From NCBI GenBank assembly GCA_964016885.1, contig OZ024752.1, positions 14,632,001-14,696,000 on the forward strand: a stretch of 64,000 bases of DNA. Direction: 5' to 3'. The stretch's first letter is position 1, and each line of letters begins with the position of its first letter. The notes below the pieces were generated by a model. The model did not search any database, was not told the origin of the DNA, and saw only the letters and a program-made list of their open reading frames with translations. This document shows, one piece after another, positions 8,250 to 42,931 of the stretch. The translations under genes were made by a program, and so were the position numbers. The stretch is from Eledone cirrhosa (taxonomy: Eukaryota).

Positions 8250-9183
8250 ATTAGAAGGGCCCTAAATAAACATAAACTCAATATTAAGATAGTAGAAAGA
8301 CCAGGTACCTCCGTAAAAACACTTATTAGCAAGACATACCCGTTGCAAAGACCCTCATGTATAGATAAGAAATGTATAACCTGTAAAATAAGCCCCCATA
8401 TTAACTGTAAAACTAGAAATGTAGTGTATAGCATAAGATGTACTGAAGGACAATGTAGAAACAAAAATATAGTGTACATAGGTGAGACAGCTCGTAGTAT
8501 AGGGGGAACGAATAAATGAACACTGGCGAGACCTTCAAGATAATAAAGAATCATCTGTGCTCTACCAACATGCTAAGATAGAACACAGGGGTAGATTAGA
8601 GAACATAGAAATAAAAATAGAATCCACACACAGAAAAGTTGCAATGTTTAGGCAAATTACAGAGGCAGTAAGCATAAAAGAATTACAACCAAAATTAAAT
8701 AGAAAATATGAGTGGAACAGCAACATCACAACTTACAATTAAGGACAACATGAAAACACACACAGAACAAAATGAAAACACACACACACATAGAACAAAC
8801 AACCAACCAACAATAAATAAATAAATAAATAAACAAATAGATAAATGAACACAAACACACACAGACACCCGGATGTGGCGCATGCGCAAACTGAGCACAC
8901 AACACACACACAGAAACAAAATGGCGTAGGATAGAAGAAAGGAAAGGCACAGAAACAAAGAAAGGAATCCCCAGTCACTGAAGAGGTCACAGAGTGTGTG
9001 ACGAAAGGACTATGACTATATATAAACAACTATCTGGTTGTGGAACCAACCAACCAACCAACCAGAAATTTATAAGTTTGTAGATTTGTAAATTTATGAA
9101 TTTATAAATATATAATAAATTGAAGTGAAAGCAACTGGTGCGTGTGTTTCTTATTGGCAACATGACCCTCCCAAAGTATAACA
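8250..9183 (+). mobile_element. Penelope-like element 3' part: GIY-YIG endonuclease (frameshifted) + pLTR
   Basis: CITC...[13 protein letters not shown]...VYIGETARS...RQITEAVSIKELQPKLNRK; HHR at 8973; ends in (TA)n. Confidence 0.88.
8973..9017 (+). ncRNA. Minimal type I hammerhead ribozyme
   Basis: AGUCA-CUGAAGA-G-GUCACA/UGUGAC-GAAA-GGAC-UA-UGACU; stems I and II pair. Confidence 0.8.
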
Positions 9184-33858: not shown

Positions 33859-34694
33859 ACATATAACAAGAGTGAATACTTCTTAAAACATACATGTTTT
33901 CAGTCACACGTCTACAGTCAGTCGTCATCTAATCAGTTCTATAAAACTTGGTCGCTTCTTTGCTGAAAATATTTCATTCATTCAGTTGAATACTGTTTCT
34001 GTTTTAAAGGTCTTCTGCCAACTACAGTATCAGTTTCATGAACACATTACTCTGGATGTATATTCGTAGAATTTAATATTTTCTCGTTATAACATTCTAA
34101 TGTAGTGGCATGAGCATATATCATTAGCAGAAACATTTGGCTCCAGTTTCATACTAAATATTTCCAATAACTTTATGACAATGAATCCATATGCACATTG
34201 CAAAACTGGAGGAACGTATGCTAAATTATATTAGTTCTAACTAGCTTTGAAAATCAACAAGTGTCCTGATAATACAAAAGTATGCGACGAAGAGAAGACA
34301 TTGCTTCTTCAACACTTTGCTGAAATAGTAGTGATATATCTCATAATTAGACGAATAATGATGTATATGAGAAGGCGTGAATATTAGAAAATTCAAACTG
34401 ATAATTATCGCAGAAATTACGCACTGTTATTTGAATGCAAAAATAAAAAAATGAATGGAGTAAGTGATTCAGCAGCTGTATGCTAATTAAAAAAATAATT
34501 GTTTCTACTTTAAAAAAAATGATAATTAGACGGAACCGAAAATTAAAAATGAAATAGTTTAATCATTTCGGCAAGTAGTATAACGACACGTGATTATGTT
34601 TCGATCTCATTAAATCTCATCAGTGTACTATAGATATGTTAATATCTAGTCGCACTATGGGTTTAAGTTTAGGAATTCTCGTATACTATTTTAC

Positions 34695-36774: not shown

Positions 36775-37311
36775 AAATAAAGTTAAATAAAAAGTCAAAT
36801 GTTTAAAATTTAGCTTCGTTTATTACTGCTATATATATTTCAGTGACAGCCATCTTTGGCTGTGACCTCTTCAGGCAGTGCGAATTAGTATGGTATAGAC
36901 AAGTACATATGTTGTTGAGGTGTATAATATTGTCAATACTCTGATATGCCCAGTTCCTGGTTGGGTTGTTATTTCACTGAGGAACTGGAATCATATGAAT
37001 TCAAACAAACGAATTTCAGTGTCAAAGGGCATATCAGAGTATTGGGCATATCAGAGTATTGACAATATTATACACCTCAACAACATATGTACTTGTCTAT
37101 ACCACACTAATTCGGACTGCCTGAAGAGGTCACAGCCAAAGATGGCTGTCACTGAAATATATATAGCAGTAATAAACGAAGCTAAATTTTAAACATTTAA
37201 CTTTTTATTTAACTTTATTTTAGATTACTCCGGAGTAACCAAACCAACCTGCGCACTTCGTCGAGTGCTCCACCCTGCATACTGAGGTGTGGTATACAAC
37301 CAACACATACT

Positions 37312-37313
<2 letters not shown>
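36775..37313. mobile_element. Fold-back pLTR element, ~176-bp arms (36775-36950 / 37042-37220)
   Basis: Reverse-complement arms, each with an HHR; GAGTGCT at 37263; (TA)n flanks. Confidence 0.9.
37116..37170 (+). ncRNA. Minimal type I hammerhead (mirror copy 36825-36879, minus)
   Basis: ACUGC-CUGAAGA-GGUCACAGCC/GGCUGUCACU-GAAA-UAUAUA-UA-GCAGU. Confidence 0.82.
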
Positions 37314-37358
<45 letters not shown>

Positions 37359-38898: not shown

Positions 38899-39080
38899 AA
38901 ACGGAAGTCGTTTCGCACTTTTCGGATTCTTCATTGCAGTTTTTTTTCTACATCACTTCTGTGAGGATTTTGACTACATCTTGTTCTCTCTGGATTATCT
39001 ATAGATATGCAGACTGTTTTGCAGACAAACTGTTTTGTCAATAAAGTAAGTCACGTTACATTTAAGTATTCGACTCACGA

Positions 39081-39244
39081 TAACCACAACAGAACAGCTG
39101 TTGACCACAAGCTAACTATAGCCACAACAGAATAGCTGTTGACCACCAGCTTACTATAGCTACAACAGAACAGCTGTTGACCACTATCTAACTATAGCTA
39201 CAACAACAATTGTTGACTACCAGTTAACTATAACCACAACAGAA
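39081..39244 (+). repeat. 39-bp minisatellite, about 4 copies
   Basis: Unit TAGCCACAACAGAACAGCTGTTGACCACCAGCTAACTA. Confidence 0.85.
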
Positions 39245-39931
39245 GAGCTATGCAAATTACTTACTAACAACACCAGAGTATCTCAATTTTACAGTTTATC
39301 TCGTGTTACAGTTTAAACATTTGATATCTTTTCGAACTTAAACAACCAGAACAAATTTCACAAACAGTGAGATGTGGTTACTGAATACTGCCACAAGTGT
39401 GTGGTTTACACATCTTGTCTTCTGCCCCTCTTCCTTCACCCATAAATTCCTGCGATGATAGTGTGAGTAGAGTCCTCCAACACGTCTCCCAGGGAGTGGG
39501 TCCTGTCAGAAGCAACCGTCTCTAATTAATCCGGTTCCATCCTCCAAGCGAGACCAACACCATAAGCTTCACTTTATACGGCATTCAATGAGCTAATCTA
39601 GCCAAGATTTAAGTACTATGTTGGGAAGGAATCTACCAGTCCCAGTAAGTATGTTTCAATTATATTTTACTTGAACTGTTTAACATTTAAAACTAATATT
39701 GGTATCCTCATATACGAGGGTAAGCTGCAGATTTCATAGGCTGACTATAGAGGAGCAATGCTAGAGCTGTGAAATCTTGCATGCATGAATTTCAGCTCTC
39801 TTTATCATATATAGATGGTGTCCAAAAATGTATATACAAAGGCTATGCATTCTAATAAATATTACCTGTAGATGTAATCAATGAGTGTATACATGTTTGA
39901 TATTATATTTTATTATATATATATATATATA

Positions 39932-40133
39932 CGTTATTCCGGGTTGAATCGGAGGTAACCACAGTAAGTAAGGTACTCAATACATTGCAGAGTATAAAAG
40001 TTTTAATATAGATGAGATTCTACAGGACTAGAACTGTTTCCTTCTTTAGAAATCATCAGGAATCAGAGATTCCTGATGATTTCTAAAGAATGAAACAGGT
40101 CTAGTCCTGTAGAATCTCATCTATATTAAAACT
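39932..40133. mobile_element. Mini fold-back element made of two back-to-back hammerheads
   Basis: 135-bp palindrome 39999-40133 with 3-nt centre; GAGTACC (minus) at 39972-39978; (TA)n flanks. Confidence 0.88.
40068..40116 (+). ncRNA. Type I hammerhead with full stem III (mirror copy 40016-40064, minus)
   Basis: GAUUC-CUGAUGA-UUUC(UAAA)GAAU-GAA-ACAGG/CCUGU-A-GAAUC; GUA site at 40111. Confidence 0.85.
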
Positions 40134-41023
40134 ATATACATGTATATATATAAATTAGCGAGAATCGCATTTCAGCTTTTGGAAATTAGCGAAAAACAAC
40201 TTCTGAATTGTGTGGTAAGCGCTGAATAGATACGAGTGAACTAAGCTTACGTTAAAAGGCCAATCACATTGAGACGATGGTTAAACCATTAACCGCAAAG
40301 CCATAGAAACGACCAAGCTATTCGGGTCAAACAAATAATGAAATATGATTGAAAAATTTACCCGGACCGTCTCGGAAACAGTGGTAAAATCCAATATGGG
40401 GTTTCTGCAACTCCTAAATCAGGTACTGTCTGCTTAAACAAATAATGCTAAGCTTTTGGTATGATGATCGAACAAGGAAGTCACTTTTACAAAAGGCATT
40501 TTGTTCTATGCAAAGCTAAGGTACTCACCGTGGTCTGAACCCATGTGCGGACACAGAAGAGAGAGAATCCCTAGTATTGGCGGATGAATTCAGTATGTGT
40601 GGTTATTGCACTATATCACCAAACGAATTAAGCTCTCGACAGAATAGTTTTAAAATTAAAATACGTTATTAAACAGTCATTAGAATTAACTAAAAGAAAT
40701 CAAAAAAAATTAACTGGTTAATAGCTGGGCTCTGGAGATTAATAATTATTAACAAATGAAAGATATTCACAAAATCAAAATATGTGCTTTATTATATATA
40801 TTTCAAAGGTACTGTGTTGTTCTTTTCAGTACATCCTCATTTAGATAAAATATGATTTGATATGACATACCGCTACAGTCTTGATTATACAGATTCAGTA
40901 TTGGCGGTTATCATTATATTAGTTATATATATATATATTATTATATTGGTTATATATATATGTGTGTGTGTAAAAGAGACATTGAGTGAAAAACAGGTCT
41001 AAAGTTAAATCTTGTGTGTGTAT

Positions 41024-42227: not shown

Positions 42228-42931
42228 GTACTGGCAACAACACGACGGTAACATAGACAACATAGACATTAGAATAATATCTAAACATAGAAATGACCCA
42301 GCAGATAGGCAAATCAGAGAGGCCAGTGAAATAGAACTTAGAAGGCCAAGGCTAAACAGAAAGAATGAATCGAATAACAACGACACCCAAACAAACAACA
42401 CTGACCTAAGAGAAGTATAAATAAATAAATAGATAAATAAATAAATAAATACATACACAAGCACAATAACAACAAATACATATAAACACACACTAGTTAA
42501 GATAGAAGACATTAACCAATACACTGTCACCCAATCACGAACACACATCAAACAGAACACTATACACACACGCAAACGCATGCGCAAAGAAGACAAAATA
42601 AAATAAACAAATAAATAAATATATAAACAGACTAAATAAAGATGGCGTAGAAAAAATACAATGCAACGGGAGGAAACAATAGCACCACTGACGATGTTGC
42701 AGATCTGCAACGAAAGAACTTTGATAAACTATATATATGTGTTTATGTCTATATTGTATCTGTATTATTTTTGACCGATGGTCAGTCAATGGCAACATTG
42801 AGGACCGAATAAATTAGATTACCGATAAAAAAGACACAGAAGCGAAAAGCGAAAACCAACCAAACAGTGAGTGTGTTCTGTTATTCATTCTCGCAATATT
42901 ACACAAATATGACCCTCCCCAAGTATAACAA
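42228..42931 (+). mobile_element. Penelope-like element 3' end (GIY-YIG C-terminus + pLTR), relative of 8250-9183
   Basis: HDGNIDNIDIRIISKHRNDPADRQIREASEIELRRPRLNRK; HHR at 42684-42725 (CUGACGA, GUUGCA/UGCAAC, GAAA); shared terminus. Confidence 0.82.

Follow-up and report, generated by a model that had tools for sequence, protein, structure and literature searches.

Results

Layout of the locus

The window analysed here, the whole 64,000-nt stretch of Eledone cirrhosa DNA, contains a short palindromic element set between two TA-rich runs. We refer to this element as the stub and number its parts by the leader of the parental Penelope-like element (PLE) described below. Its features are as follows.

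39913..39931, no strand: left flank, (TA)n target, with no target duplication readable inside the repeat
39932..39998, minus strand: 67-nt "tail", parent leader positions 67-133, on one arm only
39999..40064, minus strand: long arm, leader positions 1-66
40016..40064, minus strand: long-arm hammerhead (type I), predicted to be cut between 40021 and 40020
40065..40067, no strand: centre junction AGA, placed from the parent's upstream sequence and the junction spectra
40068..40116, plus strand: short-arm hammerhead (type I), predicted to be cut between 40111 and 40112
40068..40133, plus strand: short arm, leader positions 1-66, stopping at the proximal fixed end
40134..40155, no strand: right flank, TA-rich target

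The two 66-nt arms (39999-40064 and 40068-40133) are 97% complementary with 3 nt (AGA) between them, and the rod that they are predicted to form has a folding energy of -114.9 kcal/mol (z -18.7 against 200 shuffles). The palindrome described in the original prediction is borne out by these values, and the opposed hammerhead motifs that it placed at 40016-40064 (minus) and 40068-40116 (plus) are real. It had also singled out two differences between the arms. Both are present, and lie at 40041 and 40100, but the arms are perfectly matched at these positions in 29/29 other best copies, and the differences are private mutations of the window copy rather than traits of the family. Taken as a whole, the element in the window lacks the promoter and is a head-to-head union of leader positions 1-133 with leader positions 1-66. 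At its centre, the short arm's predicted +1 A falls at 40067, and 40066 is an extra G where the parent has C, which may be either a copy of the RNA cap or an untemplated base. The end of the short arm is identical to that of tail-less promoter-bearing copies, both solo and in tandem, and this fixed end probably marks a proximal reverse-transcription start; the outer limit of the tail, a distal fixed end, would mark a distal start. Since short-read contigs from two runs cross the window-type centre, the fold-back junction is not an artefact of the assembly used here.

Sequence and fold of the hammerhead motifs

Both hammerheads read outward from the centre and carry CUGAUGA, GAAA, and a GUA triplet, and with a conserved core, an NUH triplet, and three stems they are of type I. 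Rfam returned no match in the window at the gathering threshold, and at a relaxed threshold there was a weak match to the RAGATH-1 hammerhead (E 3.4). The miRNA matches that also appeared at the relaxed threshold were dismissed, as they merely reflect the long hairpin.

Stem II is closed by U.U in the stub family and in two related subfamily copies (L135 and L142), not by G10.1-C11.1, a pair termed highly conserved in the account of PLE-derived hammerheads by Cervera and de la Pena (2014, PMC4209133). In the minus arm of the window copy, stem II ends in a U-G pair as a result of the private change at 40041. Stem III of the family has 4 bp and an 8-nt loop around a CUAG palindrome, and the 5-bp stem III of the plus arm in the window is due to the private change at 40100. 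The claim that both motifs have a canonical core and a real stem III therefore stands for the core and the three stems, but the 5-bp stem III is peculiar to this copy and G10.1-C11.1 is absent. The stretch with the CUAG loop is predicted to self-dimerize at -12.8 kcal/mol versus -1.4 kcal/mol alone, and such self-dimerization would be as expected for the dimer-type PLE hammerheads discussed in PMC4209133. Stem I carries a compensatory change in both relatives, and their loops II and III are variable. Because stem I covaries in these related subfamilies, the parental hammerhead motif looks to be under selection. As a separate observation, U at both ends of stem II also occurs in other hammerhead families of the genome (L012, L039, L079, L091, L126, L139, and L153), and stem II U/U is thus a recurring departure from G10.1-C11.1.

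The stub family in the genome

A DNA search of the 3.0 Gb genome yielded 2,163 candidates, and the 40 that were scored are 97-100% identical over nearly their full length. Exact patterns identified 2,875 dispersed fusions within about 15 nt of the initiator and 1,056 in which stem I is intact on both of its strands; control patterns gave 0. Just a few partial pieces of the family were found in runs X5 and X6, from two other organisms. Each of the 30 best copies is bordered by TA-rich microsatellite on both sides and has a constant left end, with a (CT)n run preceding the TA in one of them. The private divergence of copies is about 0.8%, and the arms differ from each other at 1.3% of sites.

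The original prediction turned in part on whether other copies share the window's centre or whether this junction is unique in the genome. The exact centre is present in 5/29 closest copies, so it is not unique. It is found in the same orientation in none of 42 copies picked by position, and the family has many junctions rather than a single one, with 41 types among 67 copies. These junctions, and the tails scored below, come from contig C1 only, where 68 fused loci were collected and 67 parsed (L194 failed to parse); 6 of the 67 were drawn from a search restricted to one subfamily.

Exact arms are in excess on one strand of the assembly (5,249 forward versus 2,835 reverse), as are promoter-side arms (2,411 versus 750), an imbalance that may reflect a large tandem array made up of promoter-bearing 20A units. 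Trimmed fusions number 476 forward and 473 reverse, and these counts do not support an origin of the excess in an array that contains a trimmed fused copy. Eleven promoter-side hammerhead arms of the 20T subfamily also lie in direct tandem at a spacing of about 1.08 kb (G000:C1:83680862-83691715), forming a small retrozyme-like or satellite array.

The parental Penelope-like element

The parent was traced through one odd copy that revealed upstream sequence, after which a looser pattern gave longer copies. In L063 and L064, CCAAT, CACCC-rich, TATA, and initiator motifs lie immediately upstream of the hammerhead, and these loci show a partial tandem whose inner unit has no tail. The TATA box is followed by 30 nt to the initiator A in 72 of 80 promoter-bearing arms (a sample mostly of one subfamily), and this A opens stem I of the hammerhead. 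The initiator motif, a match to the initiator consensus, presumably marks the true RNA start, which was placed by motifs together with run-off ends. Promoter-side arms number 3,161 and 1,622 for the two main subfamilies. Promoter, hammerhead, tail, and ATG are unbroken in L124, the tail continues into the start of the open reading frame (ORF) in L124 and L148, and L149 has a 714-aa ORF that is followed, about 2.4 kb downstream and in the same orientation, by a 3' copy. The ORFs beside L076, L077, L090, and L097 were set aside, as they belong to other insertions.

By eye, the parent ORF contains SDKT, CNCLNKEAC (a CxCX5C linker), CDLC (CxxC), and CMH (CxH) near the C-terminus, as well as YRDD and GIY-YIG-like motifs, and no CCHH; RWR stands at the N-terminal place equivalent to RWK. 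Sequence searches of Pfam, NCBIfam, and PDB gave no significant match, and its Atlas neighbours at 0.95-0.99 include clusters in which some members carry GIY-YIG (26-50%) and RVT_1 (77%). The window stub derives from the leader of this RT-EN Penelope-like ORF, and the suggestion that it is a PLE inversion product gains support from a parent with promoter, tail, and ORF. By the motif description in section 11 of PMC8557442 (Craig et al. 2021), the parent is a Hydra-type PLE. Like members of that C-terminal-EN clade, it has DKT, the CxCX5C linker, CxxC, CxH, a canonical-type hammerhead, and insertion in (TA)n, whereas it has RWR for RWK, and the likeness is one of described motifs. The parent is also about 5 kb long, versus generally under 3 kb in the Hydra clade, owing to an extended 3' region that resembles microsatellite.

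In this 3' region, which separates the ORF from the promoter, copies share about 2 kb of degenerate (TA)/(TG) microsatellite (L100 7400-9300; L149 5500-7500), and the element therefore spreads its own target-like repeats. The ORF-bearing copy L148 (3700-3850) starts at the predicted hammerhead cut site. In addition, about 13 of 30 loci, judged by eye, have a short form in which one arm ends at the cut site; in this form stem I can reach 22 bp, the antisense core is missing, and the hammerhead might be an active ribozyme if transcribed. The start of L148 and the rare short form make occasional cutting of the template RNA possible. The short form, which is joined at stem I, was not used as proof of cleavage, since cut RNA and stem I microhomology both fit.

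Ends of the arms and state of the template

The 2,875 fusion points near the predicted start compare with 40 near the hammerhead cut site, and most of these 40 overrun that site on at least one arm. The template was therefore mostly uncut, in agreement with the in vitro result for the anole element described below, and on the same counts we discarded the idea that most stubs come from a retrozyme-like circle opened at the hammerhead. Both arms end at the initiator, which lies 30 nt beyond the TATA box, and an extra G is often present. Of 28 ends with an intervening base, 20 have C as the cDNA base that comes after the +1 A, at a position for which the parent predicts G (39 ends were tallied, of which 10 are joined directly and 1 has no further base; L185 was skipped). 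We infer that the extra C/G is a copied cap. Cap copying is established for other reverse transcriptases. An extra G is mentioned in PMC11702581. Alternatively, the extra C could have been added to any blunt end without a template, or could be the base with which a snap-back insert starts.

A model of two reverse transcriptions at insertion

Taken together, we consider it likely that the promoterless stub consists of two head-to-head copies of the leader built at insertion by two reverse transcriptions. A (TA)n site would be cut and each DNA strand would prime one reverse transcription, with the two primings at fixed positions, one distal and one proximal, on one uncut RNA. Both cDNAs would run to the RNA 5' end at the initiator, perhaps copying the cap, and would then be joined via 1-3-nt microhomology and snap-back inserts. 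The ends of the arms would correspond to the two internal priming sites seen in vitro for another PLE. In the assay of that element, from the anole (Frangieh et al. 2024, PMC11167929), both strands are cut and extended, two internal start sites define the tail, a dimer is predicted, and uncut RNA serves.

Exactly one tail is present in 66/67 fused copies and none has two, the exception (L137) being a copy whose tail is internally deleted; in longer inverted pairs there is one tail in 18/19, again with none carrying two. Since 14 of 30 promoter-side arms of one subfamily have the tail, an independent choice at each arm would yield many two-tailed or tail-less insertions. Variants in loop II and at position 52 occur in both arms or in neither in every copy scored (27/39, 3/63, and 6/59). 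A single RNA probably serves both primers; agreement between arms could alternatively come from subfamilies active at different times or from conversion between the arms.

The same arm agreement would be explained directly if a single priming were followed by fold-back, such that a cDNA reaching the RNA end folds on itself and extends a second arm, which anneals to (TA)n. Self-priming on an antisense template is proposed for such junctions in PMC3846280 (Arkhipova et al. 2013). Snap-back inserts are indeed frequent in our sample, and the commonest trimmed junction is a hairpin with a 3-nt loop (32 of the first 100 listed, by hand count). We nevertheless regard single priming as unlikely, as the tail-less arm has the intact end in 11 of 24 clean trimmed junctions, an outcome that fold-back of a tailed cDNA cannot give and that fold-back of a tail-less cDNA cannot complete. 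The intact end lies on the long arm in the other 13 cases (the raw count was 13:13, from which L185, a wrong match, and L122, a point change, were removed by hand), and this split of 13 versus 11 makes self-folding of the tailed cDNA alone insufficient. Moreover, 0/67 copies are two-tailed or lacking both tails, and the short-arm ends equal those of solo and tandem tail-less copies. Hairpin-like junctions thus fit a fold-back step, but not as the sole priming.

The centre junctions bear on whether the stubs were made anew or recopied. They show short (1-3-nt) microhomology and snap-back inserts, with 20 types in 33 copies of the 20A subfamily and 25 in 27 of 20T, and 9 types recur in both subfamilies. 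Pairs of copies with the same junction share a five-site haplotype in 17/49 cases versus 7.5 expected (permutation P 0.0016). This association of junction with lineage indicates that some copies may descend from fused copies, or that source or era shapes the junction. If the former were general, the stub would be a self-propagating mini-element in which the parent enzyme copies read-through transcripts of a small number of fused masters in full, with junctions changing during or after copying. Uniform length, the private divergence of about 0.8%, and high copy number are consistent with such masters, as are the significant junction-lineage association and the same unusual junction in L137 and L138, which lie 312 kb apart. 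However, we find this origin improbable for the family. The 41 junction types in 67 copies include the same types in both parental subfamilies and hold non-parental bases and templated inserts, the stub has no promoter, and the variants that define lineages occur in promoter-side parental arms too. Longer inverted pairs also follow the same one-tail rule, and recopying would need reverse transcription through the tip of a 66-bp perfect rod.

Predicted ribozyme state of the stub

Forcing the hammerhead fold costs 64 (plus) or 67 (minus) kcal/mol versus the rod, and every folded prefix, on either strand, pairs the ribozyme with the antisense arm made earlier. Read-through RNA of either strand would fold into the 66-bp rod, and the stub is accordingly predicted to have no ribozyme activity. 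The competition between rod and ribozyme envisaged in the original prediction has its basis, in that each strand contains a ribozyme plus its antisense, but the rod wins by 64-67 kcal/mol. In addition, with one cut site per strand, no unit-length RNA for circularization can come from a single copy, and a switch or viroid-like cycle would be unlikely on these models. The remaining alternative, a functional ambisense viroid-like RNA or ribozyme switch as first envisaged, can appeal to one complete hammerhead per strand within the rod and to the covarying stem I of related subfamilies, but it is highly improbable given the disfavoured hammerhead fold, an antisense arm that precedes the ribozyme on both strands, a single cut site per strand, the missing promoter, a diversity of junctions with none conserved that mostly points to formation at insertion, and the same geometry at all spacings from 0 to several kb. 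The window locus itself is probably an ordinary insertion and inert. A read-through 66-bp duplex would be a possible substrate for small-RNA or editing pathways.

Discussion

The layout described here is already known for Penelope-like elements, and the stub is a further instance of it. For EN+ PLEs, inverted 5'-truncated copies with a one-sided tail are described in the Fig. 2 legend of Craig et al. 2021 (PMC8557442) and in Arkhipova et al. 2013 (PMC3846280), and the stub family resembles the EN+ insertions described there in its head-to-head copies, tail at one end, partial tandems, and (TA)n target, as well as in the hammerhead within the pLTR and the TATA and initiator-like motifs. It differs from those descriptions in that the shortest form is modal, both copies stop at the predicted RNA start, the pLTR promoter is absent, and the tail is 67 nt rather than 30-40 nt, in about 2,900 such copies. 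In the titles and abstract openings of openly available articles, we did not find a zero-spacer class ending at the transcription start; supplement files S1 and S2 of PMC8557442 may hold related families.

In the reported in vitro assay of Poseidon from Anolis carolinensis (PMC11167929), two start sites bound the tail. Poseidon belongs to a different clade and its ORF starts inside the hammerhead, and both the way in which inverted insertions form and the pairing of one distal with one proximal start are proposed here, beyond the assay of that paper. Opposite-strand hammerhead pairs of Schistosoma (PMC4209133) are likewise PLE-derived and of type I, with a palindromic loop III that suits dimers; as described there, their spacers are 100-700 bp versus 0-15 nt in the stub family, in which stem III has 4 bp and the G10.1-C11.1 pair is missing from stem II. 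Animal non-LTR retrozymes (bioRxiv 10.64898/2026.07.22.740005; PMC7229834) are also described as short, non-coding, PLE-derived carriers of a type I hammerhead. Retrozymes are, however, head-to-tail tandems cut to unit-length RNA (bioRxiv 10.64898/2026.07.22.740005), and instead of a head-to-tail tandem with a hammerhead per unit, the stub is a single head-to-head pair in (TA)n with one cut site on each strand. The proposed second reverse transcription, primed on the opposite DNA end, and the end-joined inversion junction recall L1 twin priming (PMC11702581). L1 inversions, in the account given there, split the RNA in two with 1-10 bp lost or doubled, whereas in the stubs the second start is fixed and all 66 nt of the 5' part are represented twice.

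The copies matter mainly as a record of PLE insertion, which is poorly understood; PMC8557442 calls for an in vitro system to address how PLEs form inverted ends and one-sided tails. About 2,900 insertion products, young and nearly identical, are available in this genome for reading the RNA start, the two priming sites, and the point of joining, and the family predicts strict pairing of a distal with a proximal start on one uncut RNA. A broader proposal is that PLEs, unlike other retrotransposons, integrate by coordinated double priming, in which a dimer would use distal and proximal sites on one capped, uncut RNA and would extend both strands of the cut target. We put this forward tentatively, as a serious possibility that falls somewhat short of likely. 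If true, double priming would by itself account for the tail on one side and for the head-to-head inversions throughout the PLE class, and would mean that the hammerhead is held off during insertion. The thousands of perfect rods left behind could then feed small-RNA silencing of the parent leader. The family also implies that back-to-back hammerheads in animal genomes need not represent viroid-like RNAs.

Several other hammerhead or hammerhead-like motifs lie in the window. A second, unrelated family is present as an inverted pair at 36775-37320, with 178-nt arms that match at 98%, a 90-nt spacer, and cores at 36874 (minus) and 37121 (plus). The right arm alone has an extension, which ends in (TA)n, and the pair has the same Penelope-type layout as the stub. 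Single hammerhead-like cores of other families occur at 8978-9034 (plus), which passed a stem I test, and at 34573-34623 (minus) and 42688-42745 (plus), which are matches to the core pattern only. Finally, a short tandem of units of about 43 nt, recognized by eye, lies at 39080-39250.
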